A DNA stretch of 64,000 nucleotides from a virus (taxonomy: Duplodnaviria; Caudoviricetes): IMG/VR virus record IMGVR_UViG_3300035505_000328, positions 34,775 to 98,774 of that record, one strand, 5' to 3'. Shown piece after piece: positions 8,702 to 39,005 of the stretch. The notes beneath the pieces are model-generated. The model saw only the letters and a program-made list of their open reading frames with translations. It made no database searches and was not told the origin of the DNA. The translations under genes and the position numbers were made by a program. The number at the start of each line of letters is the position of its first letter. Within the stretch, counting starts at the first letter, position 1.

Positions 8702-9088
8702 TTATGTATTACTTACAGTGTTATTTGTTTCAGTGTCACCATAATTTTTGGTATCTTTGAATTCTGTTGTTCTTTGTAAAAGTATTAGTAGATACCCAGT
8801 AAATGATGTTTTATCAGATTCAGAAGGTTTAATAATAAAATCTTCTTTAACTGTTTTGTCTGATATATCATTGATGTTAAGTGTATCTAGGAAGTTAATT
8901 GATGGAATGTACAAAGGTTGTATAATAAAGTCATTATAGATGCCTCTATGTAGATAATAATTAATATCTACTTCCATGTGTGCAACTTCTTCAATAGTCT
9001 TATAAGTTAATACTTTAGCAGATAATATACGAGTACCAAAATTACCATCAGTTCTTTCAACATTATAAGTCTCTGTAAGTGTAGCCAT
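8702..9088 (-). CDS. Hypothetical (likely virion) protein
   Basis: SD AAAGGAG favours the start at 9088; AACA-N6-TA at 9124-9113. Confidence 0.65.
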   Translation of the reverse strand: MATLTETYNVERTDGNFGTRILSAKVLTYKTIEEVAHMEVDINYYLHRGIYNDFIIQPLYIPSINFLDTLNINDISDKTVKEDFIIKPSESDKTSFTGYLLILLQRTTEFKDTKNYGDTETNNTVSNT

Positions 9089-9148
9089 AAACATTACTCC
9101 TTTCTTAATTACTATGAATGTGTTGTGTATTATCATAATATTTAAAAA

Positions 9149-9180
9149 ATTGGACTTAATCGTTTCCGATTAAGTCCAAT
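9149..9180 (-). terminator. Terminator of the sheath-tube operon
   Basis: ATTGGACTTAATCG-tttc-CGATTAAGTCCAAT with flanking A/T tracts. Confidence 0.8.
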
Positions 9181-9205
9181 CATTTTTATTAGTTCACGAA
9201 ACTGA

Positions 9206-10066
9206 TTACAGTAAATCAGAAGCTCCTGCTGAATAAGCATGTGTATCAGAATACAGATTAGGTGTACCAGTATTAGCATCATCTGCTGATTTATTGATAT
9301 CCTTCATGTAGTATTCTTGAGTACCAACACCCTCAATATTACTTGGGTCAAAGTCATTAAGCTCGGAGATACCGTATACCTTATTCTTAAGAATTTCATA
9401 AGCATAAGCATCAACGTTTGCTCCCATGTGGAACACTCCCTTAAATGACTGGTCATAATCAGTATTACTATGGTCTCCTGCAGAGAATGAGAACTGAGAT
9501 AACTGAATCTTAGTCGGGAATACTGCAGTATAATAACATGCAAACTCGATATTTGTCATGTCAACGTTATCAGCATCAGGACGAGTTGTAATGTAACAAA
9601 TCTCACCTGTATGGTTCTTAGCAGAATAAGCAATTCCTGCTCTCTTAGCATAAGTAGCAATACCAGTTTCAGGGTCACGAATACCTGAAATCCAATACTG
9701 ATAAGCATTTCTGATTGGAGAACCAGAGAACTCTCTATGCTTGATAGAGAAATCTGTATTATTCTTCTTAATGGTTGTTGCGAAATTGTAATCATTACCT
9801 GCAAAACCAGATGTAATAGAACCAGTCTCCAAATCAATATCTGAAATAGAAAATCCTTCAACGAAGTTCTTCTCAGTCATATCCCTAAAACCAGGAAATA
9901 CATCAGTCAGCCATTGAGGGAGAACAGTCCACTTGAAGAATGAGTAACCATTAATCAATGGGTCAAAGTCTAACTTCATAGTATTGTATTCACCAGTGAA
10001 GAAATTACCTTGCTTGGCAATGCTATCATCGAATACAATAACTTTACTCGCATCATGTTTTAACAT
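9206..10066 (-). CDS. Tail tube protein
   Basis: 286 aa, directly downstream of the sheath gene. It has tube-like motifs (EFSGSPI..AYQYW...IRDPETG; YTAVFPTKI). Confidence 0.75.
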   Translation of the reverse strand: MLKHDASKVIVFDDSIAKQGNFFTGEYNTMKLDFDPLINGYSFFKWTVLPQWLTDVFPGFRDMTEKNFVEGFSISDIDLETGSITSGFAGNDYNFATTIKKNNTDFSIKHREFSGSPIRNAYQYWISGIRDPETGIATYAKRAGIAYSAKNHTGEICYITTRPDADNVDMTNIEFACYYTAVFPTKIQLSQFSFSAGDHSNTDYDQSFKGVFHMGANVDAYAYEILKNKVYGISELNDFDPSNIEGVGTQEYYMKDINKSADDANTGTPNLYSDTHAYSAGASDLL

Positions 10067-10140: not shown

Positions 10141-13119
10141 TTAGCTATTTACAATCAAGTCAATAGCGATACGTTCAATGATTGAGTTGAACACAAGTTC
10201 AATCTTAACACGAAGAATCTTCTGTGTTCTATCGTAATCAGAAGCATATACAAGACCAGTGATAGAATCACAACATCTATTAGCAGTCCACTGTAACAGA
10301 TAAGCGTTCAATGCAATCTGAGCTTCAGCTCTAGTTGTGCTATCATTGTATTCAAATTGATAGTCAGCCATCAATTCTTCAACTTCTCTCTGGATTCTAA
10401 GCAATGCACGAACATTGTTCAAATTAGAAAGAGCTGATACGATAGACTGAGAAGTCAACTGAGAATTGAATCTCGTAGACTTACTATCTTGAATAATGTA
10501 GTTAACTCTAGCTTTGTACATAAGTTCTTGCCACTCTGGATTAGGAAGGTATGAAATACTTTCAAAACCAGAAATTGTACCACGACGAGGTCCAACAAAG
10601 TTCCAATGAATACCATAGTTAGCATCATTTGAAGGAATCTTAGAAGACAAGAAATATGTAGAAGTAACCTGCATATTCTGACTTGTATAAGTAGCATCAT
10701 TCACAACAAAGTCTTGTGCAAAGATAGCTACACGGAAATTGTTAACACTCAGCTTACCATTTCTGAAAGCAATAGCTTGTTCTGGTGTTGCCTGACACTT
10801 AGTATCAAGAATAGCCACAAAGTCATTACGGATTTCAGTAGTAAGTGTAACAAGTGCATTTTTAATGGAAGTACTATAATTAGCATCCATAACCATATCG
10901 ATAGGATACATTTCTTTATTAGTAACACCATCATCAATATTACCAAGATAACCCTTGATAATTAGCTTCTCTACTTCTGAAGAACTTGGAATCAGGTCTT
11001 CAATAGTACCATCAGAACCATAAAGTAATCTTACATTACTGTCATAATTCTGAATCTGAGACTTATAGCAAGTCTGAAGCTGAGAAGAAAGTGTACTATC
11101 AAATAGCATGATAGATGATTCAATCTCATCTAAGTCAAACTCATAATCTTCAGCACAGAGAACTGTAGCCAAATCAAGAATCTGTGTCTTACATGTTGAG
11201 ATGTCATCTCTGATTGAATAGAGCTTACTATAATTAAACTCTAACAGAGTTAAGTTAATAGCAAACTTAGTAGCTTCAAGAATACTCTTAAGACAACCAT
11301 CAGTAGATTTAGTAAGACCACTCTCACCATCATCAATCGTACCATTTCCATTCAAATCAATACTCTGGTTTGTAAGTACACCACCAAATACATTACTCAT
11401 AGCATTGTTAAAGTCTTCTTCAACAGTTAAACTAGAAGTAAGTTCATTATAGTAGCTTTCAAGAGTAACAATATCTTTAGCAATTTCTTCAAGCTTGCCA
11501 TCTGCAAATGTTAAAGAAACACCATCTGCAATAGGGTCTGCAACTTCATCAATCTGAAGATAGCTTAAAATGTCACTAATAGAACTAATTGTATTAGCAA
11601 TAAATACAATCTTTTCATTATTAGTTCCTTCAATAACTTCTTCAAATTCAGTCATAATCTCACTTAAATCCTGAACATAGTTAGCATACTTAGTAGACTT
11701 GTTATTTACTACATATACTGCACTTTCAATAGATTCCAGTAAAGATTGTGCTGTAATAGATTCTGATGTAGTTCCCATAATACGCTCATAATCAAATACA
11801 GTATACAGATAATCAATGATTTTCTTAACAACTGCTTTGATATTATTCGTCTTAGAAAGAGCTGTATTAAAAGTATCATTTACAACATTAGCATTTAAAT
11901 CAGCAATAGCTGAAGCTGCTTGGTTGTAAGCATCTTCTATCATAATAGCATATTCACCAGAACCATCCTGAAGCTTAGAAATTGTCGGATGAAGAATAGT
12001 ATTAATAGGATTGAAACCTTTAACTTTCTTAAGCTTACTATAAGCATTTTTCATAATACTCATAGCTGTTTCATATCTCTTGTAAATTGCAGTACGATAA
12101 GTATTATCAGAGAGTACAATAGAACCTTCAATAGAATCTGTTGGGTCAATGATATTACGTTCACCAGTAGCATCACCATTGATGTCGTACTTAATCATAG
12201 ACATATGAATATCTTCTTCTTTACCTGTGATTTCATCAAGATAAGTTTCGTACTCACCATCAATCTTCTTAGAGATTCCGTTGAAGAAATCAATTCTGTT
12301 CGGATGAACATTAGGATTGATAATGTTTGCAAGATACTCATAATTGTCATCATTGAAGATGATATCAAAGTACTCTGAATACTTAGAAACAACGTCCTGA
12401 ATGAACATTGATTCACCGCTTACTGAAAGAGCATCTGGGTCTAAAGCAACTTGGAAAGGTCCTTCAATAGTAGATGTAGAACCAGAATCACTTACTTTAG
12501 TAACCTCAAAGTTATAAATACGGAAATCATATGTAGAATCATAAGTATCCGTAGATGTAATTCTAAATCCTAAATCGTTATAACCCTGTCCACGTCCTTT
12601 AGGAATAACAGCAAGAATCATATTGTTATTGTAACCATCAACAGTCTTAGGATTAACACCTAAATCCTGTGAATTTCTAAGAGCATCAATTTCAATAGCA
12701 GACTTAGTATTATTACAATACTGTGTATACGTAACTACTGGACGAACTGTTACATTGTCAACAGTTACTAAGTTACCATCAACGTCTTTAACTTGCTTAT
12801 TATTAACCTTAGTCTGAATGTTGATTATTGCATTAGCATAACCAGCATCATCAGGAAGTACTCTCAAACAGTAAACAACACCACCAGACTGCAGCCAGTT
12901 GATAATATTGTAAGTAATCTGTCCATAGAGCTTAATATTAGGCTCACCATAATGGAAGATAAACTCGGATACTGAAGTAATCATCTTAATCTGATTATCT
13001 TCACCCTTTTCGGCAGTAAAAGCTGCAAAAAGCTTTGTAGTACCAGAAGCAGTAACATAAGTTGTGGAGTTATCTGTAATGGTACTGCTAATCGAAGGAT
13101 GTATATATTCAATAGCCAT
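10141..13119 (-). CDS. Contractile tail sheath protein (992 aa)
   Basis: N-terminal YIHP...AEKG...EFIFHYGEP and YCLRV motifs; C-terminal FVGPRRG, LSNLNNVRALLRI, YQFEYND and IIERIAIDLIV are typical of the sheath fold. Confidence 0.9.
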   Translation of the reverse strand: MAIEYIHPSISSTITDNSTTYVTASGTTKLFAAFTAEKGEDNQIKMITSVSEFIFHYGEPNIKLYGQITYNIINWLQSGGVVYCLRVLPDDAGYANAIINIQTKVNNKQVKDVDGNLVTVDNVTVRPVVTYTQYCNNTKSAIEIDALRNSQDLGVNPKTVDGYNNNMILAVIPKGRGQGYNDLGFRITSTDTYDSTYDFRIYNFEVTKVSDSGSTSTIEGPFQVALDPDALSVSGESMFIQDVVSKYSEYFDIIFNDDNYEYLANIINPNVHPNRIDFFNGISKKIDGEYETYLDEITGKEEDIHMSMIKYDINGDATGERNIIDPTDSIEGSIVLSDNTYRTAIYKRYETAMSIMKNAYSKLKKVKGFNPINTILHPTISKLQDGSGEYAIMIEDAYNQAASAIADLNANVVNDTFNTALSKTNNIKAVVKKIIDYLYTVFDYERIMGTTSESITAQSLLESIESAVYVVNNKSTKYANYVQDLSEIMTEFEEVIEGTNNEKIVFIANTISSISDILSYLQIDEVADPIADGVSLTFADGKLEEIAKDIVTLESYYNELTSSLTVEEDFNNAMSNVFGGVLTNQSIDLNGNGTIDDGESGLTKSTDGCLKSILEATKFAINLTLLEFNYSKLYSIRDDISTCKTQILDLATVLCAEDYEFDLDEIESSIMLFDSTLSSQLQTCYKSQIQNYDSNVRLLYGSDGTIEDLIPSSSEVEKLIIKGYLGNIDDGVTNKEMYPIDMVMDANYSTSIKNALVTLTTEIRNDFVAILDTKCQATPEQAIAFRNGKLSVNNFRVAIFAQDFVVNDATYTSQNMQVTSTYFLSSKIPSNDANYGIHWNFVGPRRGTISGFESISYLPNPEWQELMYKARVNYIIQDSKSTRFNSQLTSQSIVSALSNLNNVRALLRIQREVEELMADYQFEYNDSTTRAEAQIALNAYLLQWTANRCCDSITGLVYASDYDRTQKILRVKIELVFNSIIERIAIDLIVNS

Positions 13120-27933: not shown

Positions 27934-29415
27934 CTACTTTCCACTGTTGACTATAATGTTACCCTCTAAATCTTGGAATACAGGTCTTATAGCACTTACA
28001 ACCTTTTCTCCTCGACCAGCACAACATGTGGTTGATTCCAGCCAAACCCTAACTGGTTTCTTATCTTCTCCATGACCTCTCCAATAAGTGTGCCAATGAC
28101 CCCTACGCACATACTCATAGCTATGAGCAGAGCCATCATGGTGTTGTACATTATCCAAACCTAACTCTTTTCGTTCATACTCCTTACGAAGATTAGAAAT
28201 CTGGCTTAACAGATTATTTCTTTTCTTCGGAGTACTCCCTACCCTTTTTCTAGTTTCTTGCTTCGCATTAACTTCTTTCTTCTCTTTTCTTCTACGTTCT
28301 TTTTGGATTGGATGAAGAAGAATGAAGTTAATGATTAGGAAGTATGCAGCTCCAGCAAACATATGAGCAGCACATGCCTCATAGACACCTTTACGTTTCT
28401 CATTGGACTTAACTAAAATGTCCTCAACAGAAACACATCTGTCTAAGATTGCTCCCATCCCAAAAATTGCTTCCACATTATCGAATTCATACCATTTGAC
28501 GTTTGCTAAGTTGTCTTCATCAATATGTGGAACTGCATTTTCTTCTAACTTCTTAACAATGCCAACTTCTGAAGTAACTGCTTCCCGAACTGGAAGTCTC
28601 TCAGATAAATGTTTTGCAGCTTCTTCTTCAGTCTTATATGCTACAGCGTTAGAAATAACCCTTAACTCTCCACCAATCATTCGAAAATCAAAGAGCTGAT
28701 AAAAGATATCATCTGATTCTTCATACACTTTACCAGATTTGATTGCCAAACGTAAAGATGGTAATGGACAAGTTTCTGATATCTCGTCGAATAACTCTGA
28801 TGTTTTCAGTTGTCCATTACTACGTTTCACCATATCGTGATATAAGTCCATAACAGCTTCCATCTCTTCCAAGTTGCTTACAATCATTTGCTTAGATGTA
28901 GTGTTTACAGACTTAATCGTAGTAAAAGCTGGGTTGATTGTGCTTAGTCGTTTGAGAATGAACTCAAGTTCCTCAAGATGTTTAATTATCTTCCCCATAG
29001 AAAAAGACTTCTTGAAACTCATAATACTTCTGTATTCATCATCAAACTTCCTTACACTTGCCAGTGCTTTTGACACATCTTTCAGTTCAACATCATAGAA
29101 CTTCTGACCTGAATCCATGTATCTACGCACATCCCTTGTTTTCGTGTGTCTTGGTGTGTTTATTAAAAACACAATATCAGCAAGCATGTTAATTACTTCC
29201 TCATCTGAATAATCACCTGCAGACAATAATACAGCTATTGCTCTATCAGCAGGATTCTTAGATTCTGAAAGCTTTCTCATCTTGTTGATGTTGGCTATAT
29301 CAGCCATTTGTCGGTTCATAGAGAAATCTCTTAAACCATATGGGTTATTGCCAAAGCTACCTCCTTTCATAATACTTGACAAATCTCCAAACTTAGTAAA
29401 ATTGTTGTTCATCAT
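27934..29415 (-). CDS. Early protein with an AcrVA2/FinQ-like C-terminal RRGHWH motif
   Basis: YVRRGHWHTYWRG...VRVW near the C-terminus; early motif at 29473-29465. Confidence 0.55.
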   Translation of the reverse strand: MMNNNFTKFGDLSSIMKGGSFGNNPYGLRDFSMNRQMADIANINKMRKLSESKNPADRAIAVLLSAGDYSDEEVINMLADIVFLINTPRHTKTRDVRRYMDSGQKFYDVELKDVSKALASVRKFDDEYRSIMSFKKSFSMGKIIKHLEELEFILKRLSTINPAFTTIKSVNTTSKQMIVSNLEEMEAVMDLYHDMVKRSNGQLKTSELFDEISETCPLPSLRLAIKSGKVYEESDDIFYQLFDFRMIGGELRVISNAVAYKTEEEAAKHLSERLPVREAVTSEVGIVKKLEENAVPHIDEDNLANVKWYEFDNVEAIFGMGAILDRCVSVEDILVKSNEKRKGVYEACAAHMFAGAAYFLIINFILLHPIQKERRRKEKKEVNAKQETRKRVGSTPKKRNNLLSQISNLRKEYERKELGLDNVQHHDGSAHSYEYVRRGHWHTYWRGHGEDKKPVRVWLESTTCCAGRGEKVVSAIRPVFQDLEGNIIVNSGK

Positions 29416-29493
29416 TGATTTCCTCCATTTCGTTTTTAAAAGTAAGCCAATAAGTTACATATTAATAATATATGAATAAACTTAGTAAAATTA

Positions 29494-31017
29494 CTATTTC
29501 ACAAGCTTATATCTTATTAAACCACAATTCCAAACTCTCACATACCCTAGCTCCTGCATAATCTGTTTTTCAGTTTTATCATCTGAATATACATCTGGAT
29601 AGTACCTAGCTAGTTTATCTTTACGGAAATTAAACTTATGCTGTAATCCTAACTCATGTTCCATGTGGTTATAGTATTTATAGTCAGGTCTTATATAAGC
29701 ATCTACAACAAAGTTATTCTTATCATACAAATCTCCGATACTCCAAGTTCTATCTGCAAATGTATAAATATCGTTGATTTCATAGTTTTCTTTGAAATAC
29801 TTTAATAACTTACTAAATGCCCCATTCACAATGTATTTATTATGAGAAGCAAATCTAGATAGATTATAATCATTCTCTTGGTTGTACTTATTCTTCATAA
29901 TAGTAAATGTCATAACTGCAACTAACTGTTTTCTTTCCTTAGTGAATAACCCTAAGTTATATGTAGTTGATTTGTCTTGTCCTTGTATATGATGTGTATT
30001 TAAGAACTTATTCTTCTTATCTACTGAAATCTCCTTTACATAACATTTACTTGCTCTAATCCTCTCTAAGTCTTCCGATTCATGTAGTATATACTTAATC
30101 TTAGATTTGATTTGAGCATTATGATTATCCCAGTTATCCTCAAACACATGGATTAATCTTACACCTTTAGCTTCACATTCTTCCGTTTTATCTAGATGAT
30201 AATGAATCCCACATTTACCTTTTGATACCTCTTGACTATGCCAATACAATCCATTGAACTCAATAGCTAAATTATCTTCAGGAAGATAGATGTCCAATTC
30301 TTTCCCATTTAGCAAAACTCTATCATTATATATAATCTTCTTAGTATAAAAGGATTCTATGAATTTTCTGAGTTCAAGTTCTTTATTGGAAACATCTTTA
30401 GCTTCTTTACATAAAGGACAAGGTTCATATCCTTTTAAAAAAGAAGATTTAAAGTAGTCTGGATTAGATATAAATATATTTCCACATTTATTATGCTTAT
30501 AGGTAATAGATTTTCTTTTACCTTGGTATTTAGTTAAAGTAGAATATCTTCTTCCTACCATTTCTTTTAATTCTTCTTGATAAGTATCATTTGTTTTTGT
30601 ATTATTTTCAGCATTTACTTTACATACTTGTATAATTTTAACTCTAGCACACTTAGGACATCTCTCACCATTCAAAAAGTTAGTTGGTGTCATATCAAAC
30701 TTATATCCACATTCTTTATGTTTAAATGTTATTTTAGTACTTGTATTGATATAATCAGATAATACAGTATATTTCTTATGTGTTATTTGTTCTACTTTTT
30801 GTTTAAATTCTTTTGGTGTATACTGATGTTTACCAGAGCAATAAGGGCATGTACCATATCTAATAAAGTCTTTAGCAATACGTTGGAACTTATGTCCATT
30901 AGGACATTTGAAATTCATCTTATCACTTGCTCTAGTATATTCAGATAATACTTCATAACCTTCTTCTAATAAAGGTTTACATTTTTCTAAATAATCTTCA
31001 TGAGTTACTTTTTTCAT
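29494..31017 (-). CDS. Free-standing Hef-like endonuclease: Zn-ribbon repeats, a PD-(D/E)XK/Vsr-like nuclease and a GNAT/Mom-like C-terminal domain
   Basis: CPNGH/CPKC repeats; ELDIYLPE..LAIEFNGLYWHS; FLNTHHIQG...LSRF...GAFSKLL...FADRTWS. Confidence 0.7.
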   Translation of the reverse strand: MKKVTHEDYLEKCKPLLEEGYEVLSEYTRASDKMNFKCPNGHKFQRIAKDFIRYGTCPYCSGKHQYTPKEFKQKVEQITHKKYTVLSDYINTSTKITFKHKECGYKFDMTPTNFLNGERCPKCARVKIIQVCKVNAENNTKTNDTYQEELKEMVGRRYSTLTKYQGKRKSITYKHNKCGNIFISNPDYFKSSFLKGYEPCPLCKEAKDVSNKELELRKFIESFYTKKIIYNDRVLLNGKELDIYLPEDNLAIEFNGLYWHSQEVSKGKCGIHYHLDKTEECEAKGVRLIHVFEDNWDNHNAQIKSKIKYILHESEDLERIRASKCYVKEISVDKKNKFLNTHHIQGQDKSTTYNLGLFTKERKQLVAVMTFTIMKNKYNQENDYNLSRFASHNKYIVNGAFSKLLKYFKENYEINDIYTFADRTWSIGDLYDKNNFVVDAYIRPDYKYYNHMEHELGLQHKFNFRKDKLARYYPDVYSDDKTEKQIMQELGYVRVWNCGLIRYKLVK

Positions 31018-31035
31018 AATGTATATACTCCTTTC

Positions 31036-31977
31036 TTATTTAAATATAGTGTCTAATACCTTTTCTAAGTTGTCATATTCTGTATATGGGATTCTAATTA
31101 AGTTAAAATTATTATCCTTACAGAATTCTGTTTTGATTTTATCATGTTCTTGATACTCTTTTAAAGTCATTGCTCCCCAACCAAAATTTGATTCTTCATA
31201 ATGCTGTAATCCATCGAATTCAATAAGCATATTCATTGATTCAATGTAAAAATCAAATGGTAAAGGATGTTTATCCCTACATTCTGGAAAACGCTTTTCT
31301 GATTCATAAGATATATTGTGTTTATCTAAGTAATTAGCTATTCTTTCTTCAGCTTTAGACCTAGAACATTTAGGACATCTTTTACCATCAAGAAAATGAT
31401 AAGGACTTACTTTCCAAATATTTCCACATTTATTATGCTTCATCTTTATCTTAGTTCTATTAGTAATATAATCTTCTAATACACTATATTCATCACCTAC
31501 TAAACCATAAACCTCTTGTCTAAATTGTTCTGGTGATTTTCTAAGATTATGAGTTCTACTAAGTTGAGCACATTTAGGACATCGTCTTCCACCTAAAAAG
31601 TGATAAGGTGCAACTTGGTATTTATTACCACAAGTATTATGTTTTAAAGTTACTTTAGTCTTACTATTAATATAATCTTCTAATACACTATATTCATCAC
31701 CTACTAAATCATAAACCTCTTGTCTAAATTGTTCTGGTGATTTTCTTCTAGCTTTAATTTTCTTTTGTCTAGAAACATCTGCACACTTTGGGCATCTATT
31801 TCCTCCACTAAAACAAGTTGGTAACATACTAAATACATTACCACAAACATTATGTTTAATTTTTATTTTAGTATGACAATTAATATATTCATTGCTATAA
31901 ACAGAATATTCTCCATTAGTTTCATTAGTAACATAATCTGAAAAAGTTTTAAAATCATAATATCTTTTCTTTGGCAT
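31036..31977 (-). CDS. Free-standing homing endonuclease (Zn-ribbon repeats and Vsr-like nuclease)
   Basis: Three KHxxCG...RCPKC repeats; LPFDFYIE..MLIEFDGLQH...HDKIKT. Confidence 0.8.
   Translation of the reverse strand: MPKKRYYDFKTFSDYVTNETNGEYSVYSNEYINCHTKIKIKHNVCGNVFSMLPTCFSGGNRCPKCADVSRQKKIKARRKSPEQFRQEVYDLVGDEYSVLEDYINSKTKVTLKHNTCGNKYQVAPYHFLGGRRCPKCAQLSRTHNLRKSPEQFRQEVYGLVGDEYSVLEDYITNRTKIKMKHNKCGNIWKVSPYHFLDGKRCPKCSRSKAEERIANYLDKHNISYESEKRFPECRDKHPLPFDFYIESMNMLIEFDGLQHYEESNFGWGAMTLKEYQEHDKIKTEFCKDNNFNLIRIPYTEYDNLEKVLDTIFK
31468..31745. repeat. Near-identical ~75-bp direct repeat with a 204-bp (68-aa) period
   Basis: RKSPEQFRQEVY(D/G)LVGDEYSVLEDYI is encoded twice with almost identical DNA. 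Confidence 0.9.
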
Positions 31978-32150
31978 ATTATAACACTTCCTTTCTAAAA
32001 ATATAAAATATTTTAATTAATCTTATTTATTACATAGTTATAATATATATTTTTACTTTAAAAGGATTTACACTAATAAATAAGAATAAATCACCCCTAA
32101 GATTTCTCTTAGGGGCAAATAATTTATACTTAGAAATATCAAGGTTGATA

Positions 32151-33815
32151 TTAATAGCCAGGTGTTGAAGGTACAACACCAACATTGTTCTTGATGTCAA
32201 TTCGACAAATGAGAGGCGTGAATTCCTCAATGGTATGTCTCTTTGTCATCATAATAGATGGTACATTAGGCATATTTGGGTCTCTGTAACCACGTTCAAC
32301 GTTGAAGGTGTAAGGATAATATTTATATGTCATTAGCCTGTCTATTCCCGGAACAAAGAACATGATAAATGCTCCGTTTGGAATCAGGTCAGATGAAACC
32401 ATCTCGTAACGATTTGCGCCACTAAAGGCACCGAGATTGAAAGATACATCTACACCAGACATCTGGTCTGAAGTATGATTAAATACCCAATCAACATTCG
32501 GAAGTAGCTGCATATCAATCGGATTACCAATAATCATAAACTTACCACCATGGAACTTGCAGTCAGTTTTCATCTTGATTGCATAGTAATCAATGACAGT
32601 CTTCAATTCTTCTCTCCAAGACTTAGGAGTTCCGTTATAACCTGCTGACGGAATTACATTGAATTCACCAATGTACGGAACATTGTTAACTGCAATAGAG
32701 TTAACCAAGAAGTTGTAAATCTCAAGCTCAAGTTTCTGAGCTACTGTCTGAGACATAATATCAACAACTTCTGCAGCACCATCGATGTTGTAGATAGCCA
32801 TTGTATCCTGCAACCATTCGATAGGCAGTGGAGCATTAAGGTGAGTACCTACTCCAATCGTGATGTCCTTAGTAAGAACATCGAAGCTTACGCTTTCACC
32901 CTGCTCATTCGTTTCTTGAGAAGCTCTAGCATTAAGCGTAACTTTATCAATGATACCCTTTGTAGAAAGCAAAGTAATTGTACCGTTAGTATAGTCAACC
33001 TGACCGAAGATACTATCATTAATAGTACCATACTCTGTAACAGCACCAGTAGTTTCATCAGTAACACGTACTGGGATGGAAACTTTACCTTTCAGTACTG
33101 CTTCTTGGTCTGTCTTAATATGTACACGTACATGTACTTCCTCACCAGTGATATCTTCACCAGTCTCATTCTGCTCATCAGAAGCAGGAAGAACAGGTGC
33201 TTCAACAATAACATCTTCAATATAGAAAATCTTATCAATGGAATCATTCTTTTCTGCTGAAAGCGGAACACTGAAATACTGGAAGAGGTCTTCATCTTCA
33301 AGCGTAGGCTTGATAGAAATCGGCTCTCCAGAAATACGTGGAAGTTCTGCTCTTTGGTTATTCAGCTCATTGATAGCATTAGGAAGCTCATAACGATTTC
33401 CATCACCATCAAACAAATAAGCCTTTGTATAAGAAATAGCAAATCTCGGTGTTGCAACTACCTGAGTAGGAATTGCATGCTTAAGAGCTACCTTTGCCCA
33501 CATCTTACGAATCGTAGGCATAGACAGTCCTGCAATCTGCTGGATACCGTCTACTGTTGCTTCTTGAAGCATTGTTACACGAGAGTTATTCATAAGCTGG
33601 TCAAAGTTTTCAATCTGGTCAGCTTCCATACCCTCACAAAGATGTGATTTATAGCTATCAAACAAAGTCTGTTCAGACAGAATTTCAGAGAAACCTGTCG
33701 GATTTGTCATATTAATACCTTTATCAGAAAAGAATTCTGCAGTCTCACGAAGCATACCAGAGAAGTCATCATTCATAACTGGTCTCTGAGCTTGTCTGTA
33801 CTCAATATGGTCCAT
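32151..33815 (-). CDS. Major capsid protein precursor
   Basis: 554 aa in the head module with tandem late promoters. Its N-terminal propeptide has L-x-E sites (MLQEAT), and the C-terminal YKYYPY...PSIMMTKRH resembles the T4 gp23-type C-terminus. Confidence 0.85.
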   Translation of the reverse strand: MDHIEYRQAQRPVMNDDFSGMLRETAEFFSDKGINMTNPTGFSEILSEQTLFDSYKSHLCEGMEADQIENFDQLMNNSRVTMLQEATVDGIQQIAGLSMPTIRKMWAKVALKHAIPTQVVATPRFAISYTKAYLFDGDGNRYELPNAINELNNQRAELPRISGEPISIKPTLEDEDLFQYFSVPLSAEKNDSIDKIFYIEDVIVEAPVLPASDEQNETGEDITGEEVHVRVHIKTDQEAVLKGKVSIPVRVTDETTGAVTEYGTINDSIFGQVDYTNGTITLLSTKGIIDKVTLNARASQETNEQGESVSFDVLTKDITIGVGTHLNAPLPIEWLQDTMAIYNIDGAAEVVDIMSQTVAQKLELEIYNFLVNSIAVNNVPYIGEFNVIPSAGYNGTPKSWREELKTVIDYYAIKMKTDCKFHGGKFMIIGNPIDMQLLPNVDWVFNHTSDQMSGVDVSFNLGAFSGANRYEMVSSDLIPNGAFIMFFVPGIDRLMTYKYYPYTFNVERGYRDPNMPNVPSIMMTKRHTIEEFTPLICRIDIKNNVGVVPSTPGY

Positions 33816-33878
33816 TTTACTGTCGTTGTATTTGGTTGCCCAAGTCTGGGTCTTACATTAATACAACTTCCTCCTTTC
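33816..33878 (-). promoter_or_regulatory. Hairpin-bridged ribosome-binding site of the capsid gene
   Basis: GAAAGGAGGA-A, then a 43-nt hairpin (GTTGTATT/AATACAAC), then 9 nt, then ATG. There is no SD adjacent to the ATG. Confidence 0.7.
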
Positions 33879-33917
33879 AAAAATTTTTAATATAATATTG
33901 AAAAATTTAATGTAATT

Positions 33918-34002
33918 TAATTAAATGTTCATTGTCTATATTATAAAATGAAATAAAAGGGTTTGACAACTGAAACTCAATTAAAATTTCTATTAAATTG
34001 TT
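33918..34002 (-). promoter_or_regulatory. Tandem late promoters of the capsid gene
   Basis: AACA-tttaat-TA at 33929-33918 and AACA-atttaa-TA at 34002-33991. Confidence 0.7.
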
Positions 34003-34027
34003 TCCCTAATTAAGACATAAAAGATTA

Positions 34028-34726
34028 CTAACCTATAAACATTTTTCTTTTCTTACTGCTTTTTGCGAAGTGTTGCCTCCACTTTTCAATAAGCTGTTTT
34101 TTATCATCTGCTGCACTATCAAGCTTTTCCATAAATAACTCAACGCTACCAAATGTAGTATTGATGTTACGGAAACGTTCTCGAATAGGATATATAGCTA
34201 TTCGTACATCATATAATGCACATTCTAAGAACTCTGCTCTCATAGATAGTGGAATTGTAGACAGATGACTAGGATGTAACGCTTTCACTTCAATCATAAA
34301 TTCTCCAAAGAAATTTGTCTTAGGAAATACTGAAAGAATATTTGGAGTTTCAAAATCAAAAGTAAAAGGTTGATAATACATTGAAGTAGTATCAGCTATA
34401 ATCTGACGGTCTACTGGATTTGTAAAATAAGGTGCAACTATAGGAAGACCAGTACCACCCATATAGTTTTCAATCAATAACTTACTTACACCAAGTAAAT
34501 CCAAATCTGTGTTAATATAATAAGTACATATTCTATTAGGCACTTTATCCCTTTTAGGGTCTATCATTACTTTAGCATAATAAGGATAATATTGGCTGAA
34601 AGATGGGATGGTCTGTTCTTGAACTACTTTCATAATATCTTCAGGAGTTAACTCCAAAACTTGAATGGTTGCACCTAAATTCATCTCAATGTATTGTAAT
34701 ACCATTGTAGGATTCATTATAGCCAT
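34028..34726 (-). CDS. Neck / head-completion protein (T4 gp13-like)
   Basis: N-terminus LQYIEMNLGATIQVLELTPEDI resembles gp13 ILRRLGAPIINVELTPDQI. Confidence 0.65.
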   Translation of the reverse strand: MAIMNPTMVLQYIEMNLGATIQVLELTPEDIMKVVQEQTIPSFSQYYPYYAKVMIDPKRDKVPNRICTYYINTDLDLLGVSKLLIENYMGGTGLPIVAPYFTNPVDRQIIADTTSMYYQPFTFDFETPNILSVFPKTNFFGEFMIEVKALHPSHLSTIPLSMRAEFLECALYDVRIAIYPIRERFRNINTTFGSVELFMEKLDSAADDKKQLIEKWRQHFAKSSKKRKMFIG

Positions 34727-34732
34727 AAGTTA

Positions 34733-35917
34733 TCAACTCCCTTTAATAAAACCTTGTTCCCTTAATAATGTATAAGCAGCACGCTTACCATCATCAGATA
34801 AGTTATTCATGAAGTCTACACTTTCATATAAATCATCACTAGCTGATACTGACTTATTAAGGATATAGTTGTTATCAAGTCTATTGAAAGTATTAGGAAT
34901 AAACTTATCATCATCAGCTTCAGATGTAACTTCAGCTCTTAATTCTCTTGTAGTAGCACCTGCAGGGTCATCAAACATCTTGTAATAATCAGAAGCAGAA
35001 ATATCAAGATTCTGTTTACGATTATTTCTTTCTTCCCAAGGAATATCATTTCTCATGGTAGTAGCTTTATTCAGTTCGAATTCTCCTTCTTCACTGTAGA
35101 TACGAATACCACAATTCAGATACTTATTCTTAAGAGTATTACCAAACTCCATTAGTTCATTACTTTCTGTATAATCAACTAATTCAAGTCTTCCTTCATA
35201 ACCATCACGTTTAAGAATATCATTTACAGTTTCAGATAAGTATTTCAAGTTATTTGCATAACGGTCAGGTAATTCTGCTAACATAGCTTCATTATTGATA
35301 GCTTCAGAGTTAAGCAGTATCATATCAAAACCATCACCATCTTCACCACTTACAAACTGTAATGAACTTTCTGTAAAGTAAGGTTTAAGTAAAGGATTCA
35401 TGTCACTACGTTGTAAAGCTTTATTGATTCTACGACATTCTCTAAACACTTCACTCTTTACAACATCTTCATTAATCTGCTGTTGAGCTTTAGAAGCAGG
35501 ATTCTTAGCAACCCTAGCTTTTAGAGAACTAATAAGAGCTTGAAGCCTTTTCTTATCAGAAGGATTTTCTTCTCGTCTCATTTGTCTTTCAGCTTTACCA
35601 ATAATATGATTAATCTTTCTGATTTCAATCATATCATTAACATCTTTACCAAGATGTTTCATTTCATTCTGGACATCATCAATAAATGCAGTAACTTCAT
35701 TTGATGATTCATTACAACACTCAGATTCTTCTTCACCTTCAGTGTCATCATATTCATCATTATCACCAAAAATTAAACTGTCACCAGCATTTGGGTCTCC
35801 TGAATATGGGTCATAGCAATCATCAAATCCATCACCATCATCATCTTCATCTTGTGAATTTAAAAAGTCCTCAACTCCTTCATTGAGTTTAAGAACTTCT
35901 GATTCCATATCAAACAT
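34733..35917 (-). CDS. Probable prohead core/internal head protein
   Basis: Start at MFDMES (SD AAGGAGG). Acidic, with many L-x-E sites, and located between the protease and neck genes. Confidence 0.55.
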   Translation of the reverse strand: MFDMESEVLKLNEGVEDFLNSQDEDDDGDGFDDCYDPYSGDPNAGDSLIFGDNDEYDDTEGEEESECCNESSNEVTAFIDDVQNEMKHLGKDVNDMIEIRKINHIIGKAERQMRREENPSDKKRLQALISSLKARVAKNPASKAQQQINEDVVKSEVFRECRRINKALQRSDMNPLLKPYFTESSLQFVSGEDGDGFDMILLNSEAINNEAMLAELPDRYANNLKYLSETVNDILKRDGYEGRLELVDYTESNELMEFGNTLKNKYLNCGIRIYSEEGEFELNKATTMRNDIPWEERNNRKQNLDISASDYYKMFDDPAGATTRELRAEVTSEADDDKFIPNTFNRLDNNYILNKSVSASDDLYESVDFMNNLSDDGKRAAYTLLREQGFIKGS

Positions 35918-35936
35918 ATTGAAAGTTCCTCCTTTC

Positions 35937-36240
35937 TTATAGATTTGCCATATAGTGGTCCAAGTCATTAGCAATATAATCTTCTACACATGCTGCAAGA
36001 ATATCAAAACCTTCTTGGAAGTAGATAAGCTTTCTTTTCTTATCATAGCCAAGAGCAGTAGCTTTATCAAATTCAAGCTGTTCTTTTAAGTTCTTAACAT
36101 TCTTACTTTCATCATTAATAAATGAAATTATACTATCTTCAGTCAAAGGAATAAAATAACTTTCACTATTCAAATAATTCACTCCAGAAGATTCCTGCAG
36201 AACTTTAGTCATATATGCAGGTCTATGTGATGGGTGTATA
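35937..36240 (-). CDS. Prohead protease, exon 2
   Basis: Begins T-ATA-CAC-CCA-TCA and completes TYDWIIHPSHRPAY, which carries the catalytic Ser region. Confidence 0.88.
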
Positions 36241-37717
36241 CAAACTTGTCTCTATATCTCTATAGTTGTTTAGACTATATCTTAATTTCATCTCTTTTAC
36301 CAAAATAAAATTTCCTCCGTTTCATTTTACTTATATTCATTCCACTAATATAAAACCATATAGGATATTACTCTACTGACTTATATAAATAAGGTATTTC
36401 TCCTTATAATAAGCTGGTCGATAGTCGTTGAACTCATATCCACATATAACATTGCTAGGAGGTTATATGTAACAATATAGGATACTTTGCTGCGTCGATT
36501 TTCTCTATTTCTAAACTTTTTACTATACCTTGAGAGTTACCTCTTGCCACTAATTCATCTATTTCGCATTGTTTAGCTACTGAACTAGTTTAGTACTTAG
36601 AACCTAACGAGTGCTTCCCCGCAGTTAGAAGGATTTATACTGGACTATACATTATTCTCAAAATAGTTATTTAATTTTTCTTGTATATCATCTTTATATG
36701 AAATTCTTAAAAGATTAATTCCATATTCCTTACAAAAGTTATTTTTAATTTCATCATGTTTTTTTCTAATCTTAAATTTTGCTTCTCCACCAAAGTACTT
36801 ATAAGGTTTAAAATGTTGTTGACCATCAAATTCTATTATAATATTCATAGATTCAATGTAAATATCAAAAGGAAGATAAGTTTTATCAACACACTCTTCA
36901 AATGAAACTTCTTGCTCAAATTCAATTTGATTATCTTTAAGATATTCTGTTATCTCTTTAATTCCTCTAGACTCAGTACTAAGAATTTTACACTTAGGAC
37001 ATTTATAATTATGCTTAGAAAAGAAATCTGATAATCTCATATCAAATTCATATTTGTTACATAATTCACATTTATGTATAAAATGACCATAAACATGACC
37101 ATCTATAGTTTTTATTTTTGTAACTGAATAATCTTCATATCCTTTTTCTAGAAGTTCATTATTTGTGCTTTCAACTGTTCTTTTTATTTTACCATAACAA
37201 AAAGGACAACCTTTTTGATTATGATATAATAAATTTGCAGCTGTAGACTTTGAAAAAATTTTGCCACATTTTCTATGAAGTATATCTATGTAAGAACTTT
37301 GATTGATATACTCACCTACAACTTCATACTCAGAAAAAGAAAATTTCTTATAAAACTCACATTCAAACTTTTCTTGTGTCCATTTAGCAGTTGAATATTT
37401 ATTCTTTTTTCTATTTTCTTTAATTCTAGCTTGTGTAAGCTTTGGTGCTTGTTTTCTTCCATTAAGATTTCTTGGTTCAATTTTCCAAATCTCACCTGTG
37501 GGAACATGTTTTAAAGTAACTTTTGTTTTAGAATCCTTATATTCTGAAAGAAGTTCATAATCAGGATATAAACGTTCTAATCTTTTAATAAAATCTTTTT
37601 GTCTTTCATATAAAGGTTTAACTGAAGCCATAATTACTACCTCCTAATTAATAAATTTATTAGTTAGTTTACTTACGATTCAGTTTAAAAAATTAAATAA
37701 GAGCATAATTTTCAGAA
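36241..37717 (-). mobile_element. Group I intron in the prohead protease (1477 nt) with a homing endonuclease gene in the P1 loop
   Basis: P1 is ACUGGAU/GUCCAGU with a U.G pair, and P10 is GUAUA/UAUAC. Core elements GUUCAACGACUA and AAGAUAUAGUC are present, and the terminal G is at 36241. Confidence 0.92.
36645..37631 (-). CDS. Intron-encoded Zn-ribbon/Vsr-like homing endonuclease
   Basis: HRKCG...CPFC and CPKC; LPFDIYIESMNIIIEFDGQQH...HDEIK; SD AGGAGG. Confidence 0.85.
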   Translation of the reverse strand: MASVKPLYERQKDFIKRLERLYPDYELLSEYKDSKTKVTLKHVPTGEIWKIEPRNLNGRKQAPKLTQARIKENRKKNKYSTAKWTQEKFECEFYKKFSFSEYEVVGEYINQSSYIDILHRKCGKIFSKSTAANLLYHNQKGCPFCYGKIKRTVESTNNELLEKGYEDYSVTKIKTIDGHVYGHFIHKCELCNKYEFDMRLSDFFSKHNYKCPKCKILSTESRGIKEITEYLKDNQIEFEQEVSFEECVDKTYLPFDIYIESMNIIIEFDGQQHFKPYKYFGGEAKFKIRKKHDEIKNNFCKEYGINLLRISYKDDIQEKLNNYFENNV

Positions 37718-38217
37718 ATCCAGTCATAAGTCAGAATATGAAGTGGGTCTTTAACATATACAATGTCACCTTTTTTCTCAGAAACAGGACCAAATCCTCT
37801 CATAGAGAAAGCAACTTGCATCCCTTGACGGACTAAACCTTGCATATCTCTACCTCTATCAGTCAAAGCACATTCAACTATACCTTTTAATAGATTTCCT
37901 TCCCACCAAATCTTAGTAATAAGGTGTGAAATATTTGATTGGTCTATGTACAACTGTCTTTCAACTGTTGGAGTTAATGGGTGTCCGGCTTCGCCAACCC
38001 ATGATTTAGTCCTCAGTCTCTCCTGAACATAATCTGCTGTTAAGGATTTCTTCAAAACATTTGTAGCATAAACTCTTTTATTTCTATTAGGTAAATCACC
38101 TTCTTGTAATATAGTCTCAATTCTAGTGACTTCTCCTGACTTATCTGAAAGAACTTTTGGGACTGAAGTTGTTACATCTTCAGAAATCATATAGCCTTTA
38201 ATTTTGTCTTTAGCCAT
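37718..38217 (-). CDS. Prohead protease (T4 gp21-like), exon 1; spliced product 267 aa
   Basis: NRNKRVY, GEAGHP, ISHLIT, FSMRGFG and TYDW motifs. Confidence 0.92.
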
Positions 38218-38248
38218 TTTTTATATGCCCCTTTCTTTAATTTCAGTA

Positions 38249-38295
38249 TAATTAAATGTTTTGATATTAGAATATTAAGGAAGAACATTTAATTA
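38249..38295. promoter_or_regulatory. Back-to-back late promoters with an identical 12-mer AACATTTAATTA
   Basis: Minus strand 38260-38249 (protease) and plus strand 38284-38295 (head-protein operon). The same 12-mer precedes the capsid gene. Confidence 0.75.
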
Positions 38296-38342
38296 AAATG
38301 ATTATATTTACTTCATCAAATATGAAAGGAGGACTACTCACA

Positions 38343-38990
38343 ATGAACAATGAAGATTTTATTGCTCAACTTGATAAAGAGATTGAACGTGATAGATTAA
38401 ATATGCTTACTGAAGGCACTACTGCTATCCTTCAAGAGAGTGACAATGATGAAGATGATGATAAAAAACATCATATAGATAAACCTGAAAAAATGAAGTC
38501 CTTAGATAGTGATTCCAAATTTGGTAAGAATGGAATATCCAAAGAACAGAAGAAAATGGCTAATAAGGAAAGAAGACACAAAGGTGTTAAAAAAATTAAA
38601 AGACTTATGCACAAGATGAAAGAACAGAAAGAAACAGAAAAGAATGATGAGCTTATGTATGGATATGGTAACTCATTAAAATCTATGCTTAAAACTGCAG
38701 CTCATTTTGGTGTAAGTTATGCTGCATTAGGACCAATCTTAGGTTCTATTGGATTCCTTGCTTCTAAACAAGCTTCTATGGGTAAAAAATTATCTGATAG
38801 AAAACGTCTCTATGACGAACTGAAATCTGATAAAGCTATTGTTGATGAGAAAATCAATGATTTAAATAAACTTCAGAAGTTAACACATGAACAGAAAGAA
38901 GAAAAATATGCTTTAATCAAGATTCAACATAAGTTAAATCAAGAATTAGAATCACTTAATAATCAAATGCACAAAGGAGTTAGTGCATAA
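38343..38990 (+). CDS. Probable internal head protein
   Basis: Start at MNNEDF (SD AAGGAGG). It has LTE/LQE sites, a hydrophobic segment and a coiled-coil C-terminus. Confidence 0.55.
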   Translation: MNNEDFIAQLDKEIERDRLNMLTEGTTAILQESDNDEDDDKKHHIDKPEKMKSLDSDSKFGKNGISKEQKKMANKERRHKGVKKIKRLMHKMKEQKETEKNDELMYGYGNSLKSMLKTAAHFGVSYAALGPILGSIGFLASKQASMGKKLSDRKRLYDELKSDKAIVDEKINDLNKLQKLTHEQKEEKYALIKIQHKLNQELESLNNQMHKGVSA

Positions 38991-39005
38991 TGAAAGGAGA
39001 CCATT

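Follow-up and report, generated by a model that had tools for sequence, protein, structure and literature searches.

Split translation initiation regions of phage T4 were reportedly described by Nivinskas et al. in 1999 and by Malys and Nivinskas in 2009. In T4 genes 38 and 25, mutagenesis and probing established that a hairpin shortens the spacing between the Shine-Dalgarno (SD) sequence and the start codon, from 22 to 5 nucleotides (nt) in gene 38 and from 27 to 11 nt in gene 25 (PMC3014915). These split sites are restricted to a clade, and more distant relatives carry ordinary sites (PMC3014915). Here we analyzed 64,000 nt of viral DNA (hereafter the window; positions 34,775 to 98,774 of the 98.8-kb IMG/VR record IMGVR_UViG_3300035505_000328), in which the genes for the major capsid protein and the tail sheath each have a hairpin between a strong SD and the start codon. 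From the anatomy of these leaders, their counterparts in related phages and the T4 precedent, we consider it likely that both genes use a structure-bridged (split) ribosome-binding site (RBS) of the gene 25/38 type, located within a late 5' untranslated region (UTR). What the sequences show directly is the layout and the true start codon, the lack of any proximal SD, the fold as predicted, a clamp conserved through many replacements of its sequence, the constrained spacers and the restriction to two genes.

The major capsid protein gene (32151..33815, minus strand) encodes a 554 amino acid protein of the T4 gp23 family (Pfam PF07068), and its leader occupies a 212-nt gap upstream of the open reading frame (ORF). 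A strong nine-base SD, GAAAGGAGG, lies 54 nt upstream of the capsid ATG (33878-33870, minus strand); it is kept in 15 of the 17 members of the clade described below and is mostly unpaired in the predicted ensemble. This SD is followed on the same strand by a 2-nt spacer, AA, and then by a 43-nt bridging hairpin (33867-33825, minus strand) with an 8-bp closing stem, in which 33867-33860 pairs with 33832-33825, and a 27-nt interior that includes an inner 4-bp stem and its 4-nt loop. From the base of the hairpin, a 9-nt single-stranded spacer without an SD (33824-33816, minus strand) leads to the start codon (33815-33813, minus strand), and no SD is found within 25 nt of this start. The 9-nt spacer is as long as the spacing normally seen between SD and start in this genome: of 60 ORFs in the window, about 45 carry GGAGG or AGGAG 6–11 nt ahead of the start, most often at 9 nt.

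We computed folds for both the hairpin and its surroundings. On its own, the 43-nt element has a predicted folding energy of -10.2 kcal/mol (z = -2.5), a stability that 4 of 200 shuffles reached. For the closing stem, or clamp, of each leader, we used dinucleotide-preserving shuffles of the segment from SD to ATG and scored the occurrence of an equal clamp in the same position; a clamp of the quality and position seen in the capsid leader appeared in 0.35% of shuffles (p = 0.0035). When the whole capsid leader was folded, the SD and the AUG region were mostly unpaired. A preliminary description of the window had given the same order of elements (SD, 43-nt structure, 9 nt without an SD, ATG), which matches the sequence exactly, but it had called the hairpin branched, and the predicted fold is a single unbranched, rod-like hairpin with internal loops.

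The comparisons confirmed that the capsid gene starts at ATG 33815, as the preliminary description had it. The open frame offers no other canonical start, there being no ATG, GTG or TTG upstream of 33815 back to the stop codon at 33860-33858, and the first 13 residues of the protein (M-x-x-I-E-Y-R...) align with 30 homologues. Met14 was ruled out as the start, being unconserved whereas the 13 residues before it are conserved in the homologues. Automated gene calls for this capsid clade, loci L002 and L070 among them, are inconsistent at the 5' end: P0001 is a 541 amino acid form cut to Met14, and others, including P0017 and P0018 from relatives, were called too long, from a TTG or an ATG inside the hairpin. 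We attribute these errors across the clade to the missing proximal SD.

The tail sheath gene (10141..13119, minus strand) encodes a 992 amino acid protein (phrog_19666, E = 9e-240) and starts at ATG 13119, with an N-terminus that aligns with those of orthologues. The same nine bases, GAAAGGAGG, form its SD, 56 nt upstream of the ATG (13184-13176, minus strand). Only 1 nt separates this SD from a 46-nt bridging hairpin (13174-13129, minus strand) with a 10-bp closing stem, which folds at -11.3 kcal/mol (z = -3.9; clamp shuffle p = 0.0065), and a 9-nt spacer (13128-13120, minus strand) again precedes the start codon. This spacer holds AAAGGA just 2 nt from the ATG, which is too near to act as an SD. 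The two hairpins are unrelated in sequence, so that the parallel drawn earlier between the two genes, of an SD, a hairpin and 9 nt built on different sequences, is indeed present at 13184-13119.

We scanned the whole 98.8-kb record for start codons that lack a proximal SD and are preceded by a strong orphan SD and a clamp stem. This search returned two convincing cases, the capsid and sheath genes. Applied to two complete related genomes, of 299 and 320 kb, the same scan likewise found only capsid and sheath, plus weak, spurious-looking matches (in G000, G001 and G002) that lie inside coding frames, have a proximal SD of their own or use GTG or TTG starts; across all three genomes, the arrangement of SD, hairpin and ATG was thus confined to these two genes. 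The scan filter admitted at most one G-U pair, and the G002 capsid leader, which it missed, was identified by leader comparison instead. The tail tube gene (9206-10066, PF23806), which adjoins the sheath gene, has an ordinary SD.

Among cultured phages, the capsid protein comes closest to the AR9 and PBS1 head proteins (Bacillus phages; 43.5% identity), and a megablast search of the capsid region against cultured phages gave no match. Parts of a multisubunit RNA polymerase of phage type are also encoded in the record, as are numerous homing endonucleases, and we therefore take the record to be a fragment of an uncultured AR9-like giant phage. We drew capsid loci from viral contigs, metagenomes and assemblies and placed them on a maximum-likelihood tree. 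The bridged capsid state was confined to one clade (support 100/99) of 17 members, 15 of them bridged and two canonical ones nested within, a pattern that implies one gain and two losses of the capsid hairpin. The capsid proteins of the 15 bridged lineages are 58–84% identical, and all 15 of their leaders have a strong SD, a spacer of 0–5 nt, a clamp of 5–14 bp and 5–13 nt from the hairpin to the ATG (19 nt in one). Between these fixed points, the hairpin spans 24–77 nt and the distance from SD to ATG ranges from 36 to 91 nt across the clade.

The clamps of these capsid leaders comprise at least nine unrelated stem sequences at the same position. Individual clamp p values were mostly 0.0005–0.06, and their Fisher-combined p over 12 lineages was 3e-9, a value somewhat inflated by the relatedness of the lineages. 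Because the stems are different sequences, the clamp signal goes beyond simple inheritance. Covariation across the related phages showed different stems preserved at the same place, indicating that the stem is maintained by compensatory change both in the capsid leaders and in those of the sheath, where four stems occupy the same position. The median 3' spacer of the capsid leaders, 9–10 nt, equals the genome's normal SD-to-start spacing, as expected if the base of the helix adjoins the SD duplex.

In sister groups whose capsid proteins are at most 56% identical, among them AR9, a plain SD stands 8–10 nt from the ATG. The two canonical capsid leaders nested within the clade, L071 and L026, have no hairpin, and their SDs lie 8 and 12 nt from the start, respectively; 12 nt is the spacing that precise excision of the hairpin would leave, as the 5' and 3' spacers sum to ~11–12 nt. 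In both of these hairpin-less leaders GAAAGGGG replaces the usual nine-base SD, and the start codon in L071 is TTG.

Sheath leaders are bridged in five lineages of the clade: the window, L079 and L081 (the sheath loci of the two complete genomes), L103 (which shares a contig with capsid locus L001) and L110 (the earliest-branching bridged capsid lineage). The sheath stems differ among these lineages, a compensatory double change distinguishes the window from L110, and the combined shuffle p for the sheath clamp was 9e-7 over four of the five. Each of the five also has a bridged capsid leader, and both features are absent from four outgroup lineages, AR9 included, whose sheath genes have ordinary SDs. 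Of the lineages that lost the capsid hairpin, the sheath could be checked in one, that of L071, through its contig L109; there the sheath protein is 52% identical and its gene carries a plain SD, 12 nt before the ATG, without a hairpin. It is therefore suggestive that the capsid and sheath hairpins share one distribution, apparently gained together and once absent together, and this joint gain and loss hints at coupling, although, with a single gain and a single loss behind it, the co-distribution is statistically not strong.

We also asked what kind of element the hairpins represent. G-U pairs on the sense strand lengthen the clamps by 36 bp in total, compared with 10 bp for the antisense equivalent (A-C), and this excess on the sense strand indicates mRNA structure rather than a DNA palindrome. 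A palindrome, operator or cruciform in DNA was rejected both on this bias and on the arm spacing, which varies from 4 to ~60 nt. An intrinsic terminator was excluded by the absence of a U-run after both hairpins and by a terminator scan that found none there, and a repeated or mobile hairpin element by the lack of a second copy of either hairpin in the 98.8-kb record. Searches with the covariance models of Rfam 15 gave no match at E <= 1 in 33700-34100 and none at the gathering score in 29000-39000.

Both leaders carry motifs that would place the hairpins in late transcripts. The late promoter consensus of AR9 is AACA-N6-TA/G, with its last base being the transcription start site (TSS) (PMC5312081). 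By pattern matching, we found a late-promoter-like AACA-N6-TA motif in the capsid leader (33929-33918, minus strand; predicted TSS 33918) and two such motifs in the sheath leader (13258-13247 and 13325-13314, minus strand). The capsid motif is conserved upstream of the SD in relatives; L079 and L081 have an equivalent motif upstream of their sheath leaders, and an identical 13-mer stands upstream of AR9's own sheath gene. For the form AACA-W6-TA there are 12 occurrences in the 10 kb of intergenic DNA and a single one in the 89 kb of coding DNA. Counted from the predicted TSS at 33918, the SD and hairpin would lie inside a capsid 5' UTR of ~103 nt, and they would also lie inside it if a sigma-70-like match further upstream (33969-33940) were used. 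Upstream of the sheath leader, the terminator scan identified a terminator-like hairpin ending the preceding gene (13367-13336, minus strand). A separate motif, ATTATATTAAA(T), stands between the promoter-like motif and the SD of the capsid gene (33886-33896, minus strand); ATTATATTAAA is conserved in the capsid leaders of L001-L004, L027 and L065-L073, occurs once in the 98.8-kb record and is vaguely similar to the AR9 early-promoter consensus.

In the mechanism we propose, the late mRNA would start at an AR9-type late promoter 40–60 nt upstream of the SD and would present a very strong SD, followed within 0–5 nt by a rod-like hairpin, an unpaired stretch of 8–13 nt and the AUG. The hairpin would form on the mRNA and stay folded outside the mRNA channel, with its 3' strand leaving the base of the helix beside the SD-anti-SD duplex and bringing the AUG to a normal distance. 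With the hairpin folded, the effective spacing from SD to ATG becomes 11 nt for the capsid gene (from 54) and 10 nt for the sheath gene (from 56). We infer from T4 genes 25 and 38 that the 30S subunit would initiate by way of such a bridged site. The preliminary description had held that the folded hairpin lets the distal SD serve the capsid start, and the predicted fold, the conserved clamps and an effective spacing of ~11 nt are all consistent with this proposal; its analogy to the two T4 genes, which share the same features of layout, gained strength from the comparison of leaders. Once established, the hairpin may be kept for protection of the mRNA or insulation of the RBS on the two most heavily made late mRNAs.

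Several points weigh against this interpretation. The fold energy of the whole capsid leader is ordinary (z = -0.14), and the hairpin alone stands out. The leaders of L073 and L076 fit the geometry poorly, one having a mismatched stem and the other a 19-nt 3' spacer. An effective spacing of 9–14 nt plus the width of the helix falls at the long end of what ribosomes use. Ribosomes of Firmicutes are thought to be poor at initiating in structured regions, and the hosts of the relatives are Firmicutes. Finally, the covariation speaks to a need for the stem once the insert is present, and any benefit of the insert is a separate matter.

Beyond bridging itself, the two sites could be conditional, both answering one shared factor or condition by which translation of capsid and sheath is tuned together; this would add to bridging, and candidates include a phage protein that binds the SD-adjacent helices, a helicase, temperature or a property of the host ribosome. 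We regard such control as possible but doubtful. It would fit the finding that only capsid and sheath are bridged in the 98.8-kb fragment and in the complete relatives of 299 and 320 kb, the occurrence of both features in five clade lineages and of neither in the four outgroups, and the one checkable nested lineage, which lacks the sheath hairpin as well as that of the capsid. However, the hairpins share no sequence or loop motif within or across genomes, making sequence-specific recognition unlikely; their lengths vary independently between capsid and sheath; the tail tube gene beside the sheath uses an ordinary SD; and a co-distribution of one gain and one loss carries little statistical weight. 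The head-tail switch suggested in the preliminary description is thus at most hinted at, by the common phylogenetic distribution and the one joint absence of the hairpins, and is weakened by the lack of a common hairpin sequence and by the tube gene. Accordingly, we put forward only tentatively, as something we would not expect to hold, that capsid and sheath form a paired, co-inherited translational module in this one AR9-like clade that depends on a shared factor or condition, a dependence that would account for their joint appearance and their joint disappearance in one lineage. If they do, the architecture of the RBS, not promoters, would set the ratio or timing of head and tail proteins.

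The hairpins could instead have no function of their own, each being an insert in a canonical RBS that is tolerated by folding away, with selection keeping only the stem. In favor of a neutral insertion, neither the length of the interiors (a 4-nt loop up to ~60 nt) nor their sequence is held constant, the hairpin sequences are unique in the genome and hairpin-less variants are viable. On the other hand, this account needs the same rare accident in two genes at about the same point of the tree, followed by reversal of both in one lineage, and the feature has persisted across a clade whose capsids are down to 58% identical. We therefore judge it an unlikely explanation.

A distal SD with a hairpin could also serve as a 5' stabilizer. 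The STAB-SD of the Bacillus thuringiensis cry3Aa gene was reportedly described by Agaisse and Lereclus in 1996, and it presumably has the same nine-base sequence as the capsid and sheath SDs. In cry3Aa it is an extra SD in the 5' UTR, far from the start (PMC12970973). Applied to the leaders studied here, the distal SD and hairpin would park a 30S subunit as a block to 5'-to-3' decay, and initiation at the AUG would be independent of them. An SD far from the start in the 5' UTR is the hallmark of such an element, the spacers before the AUG are A/U-rich and unstructured, and both genes require an abundant, long-lived late mRNA. But the distal SD of cry3Aa is an additional one, whereas the capsid gene has no proximal SD; a pure stabilizer would leave the distances from SD to stem and from stem to AUG free, whereas both are tightly constrained here; and hairpin-less relatives put this SD at an initiating distance (8–12 nt). 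On balance, we consider stabilization as the sole role of these leaders very unlikely.

The interior of the capsid hairpin contains an ATG-TAA (33858-33853, minus strand), 11 nt after the GGAGG, that is present in the window only. It is absent from all 14 bridged capsid relatives and from all five bridged sheath leaders, and the closest relative (84% identical) has no start codon anywhere in its capsid leader. No conserved minigene or upstream ORF was found in the capsid leaders, as the candidate starts that follow the SD are different in relatives or lacking there. An ATG-stop arose by chance in 11% of shuffles when placed anywhere in the leader and in 1.9% when placed at a usable distance (5–13 nt) from the SD. 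We conclude that the ATG-TAA is probably fortuitous, or at most a harmless neutralizing of an accidental ATG. A gene-60-type bypass or frameshift from it was rejected, there being no upstream coding frame and no conservation. That it is a start-stop decoy which captures ribosomes on the open hairpin and so regulates the capsid start, as had been proposed, is most improbable, since despite its usable 11-nt distance and a placement reproduced in so few shuffles, it is missing from the relatives and from the sheath leader, its ATG is partly paired in the predicted fold and the feature was chosen post hoc.

Other features of the window lie near the genes discussed above. Immediately 3' of the capsid gene are two more genes for homing endonucleases with HNH/CapR domains (29494-31977, minus strand); L109 and L110 have no such genes at the position downstream of the capsid. 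The prohead protease gene (Peptidase_S77/T4 gp21 type; 35937-38217, minus strand) looks split: ORF 37693-38217 corresponds to residues 6–170 of an intact 286 amino acid homologue in L109 and ORF 35937-36212 to residues 208–286, with an HNH homing-endonuclease ORF (36645-37631) sitting between the two pieces. This interruption looks like an intron or other endonuclease-bearing insertion; no Rfam intron model reached the gathering score at the split protease (29000-39000 scanned). On the plus strand, the late-promoter-like 13-mer found upstream of the capsid gene recurs (38285-38300) and stops a single base short of the ATG of ORF 38298-38990. This ORF lacks an SD, and if the 13-mer is a promoter, the resulting mRNA would be leaderless or nearly so. 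ORF 8702-9136 (144 amino acids, minus strand, no family match) also has no SD; before it stand an 11-bp GC-containing hairpin and a T-run (9137-9205, minus strand), the T-run ending 15 nt before the ATG, and these are probably the terminator of the tail tube gene.

Until now, the documented cases of split RBSs have been T4 genes 25 and 38. The natural variation described here indicates that hairpins of up to 77 nt and SD-AUG distances of up to 91 nt have been kept on the most heavily translated late genes of a whole clade. The relatives provide a ready series of compensatory stems and precise hairpin losses for reporter assays, and the joint gain and loss raises a testable question, whether translation of the head and tail polymers is coupled. 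Gene callers place the capsid start of this clade wrongly, which matters for annotation. What we find notable is how large a gap is bridged, that bridging serves the two main virion polymers, its apparent joint gain and loss, and this effect on start-codon annotation.

Among known systems, the split RBS of E. coli thrS was reportedly described by Sacerdot et al. There, a long hairpin inside the binding site stays folded when the ribosome binds (PMC3936740). The capsid and sheath leaders would resemble thrS in that a folded hairpin is tolerated within the RBS, but in thrS the hairpin precedes the SD, separating a standby region from the SD-AUG segment, and also acts as an operator for the synthetase, whereas here the hairpin lies between SD and AUG. 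With the cry3Aa STAB-SD, these leaders share a strong, distant SD on a very highly expressed gene, where a bound 30S subunit could protect the mRNA; they differ in having no second SD at the start and a hairpin geometry constrained as for initiation. The closest likeness is to T4 genes 25 and 38, in which, as proposed here, an SD too distant for direct use is brought to a workable spacing by a hairpin, and the feature is likewise clade-restricted. Unlike the T4 sites, those described here belong to an AR9-like phage with its own RNA polymerases. The SD-AUG distance is 22–27 nt in T4 and up to 91 nt here, with inserts of 24–77 nt, and whereas the T4 genes encode a baseplate wedge protein and a tail-fibre chaperone, the bridged sites in this clade are co-distributed on the major capsid and sheath genes.
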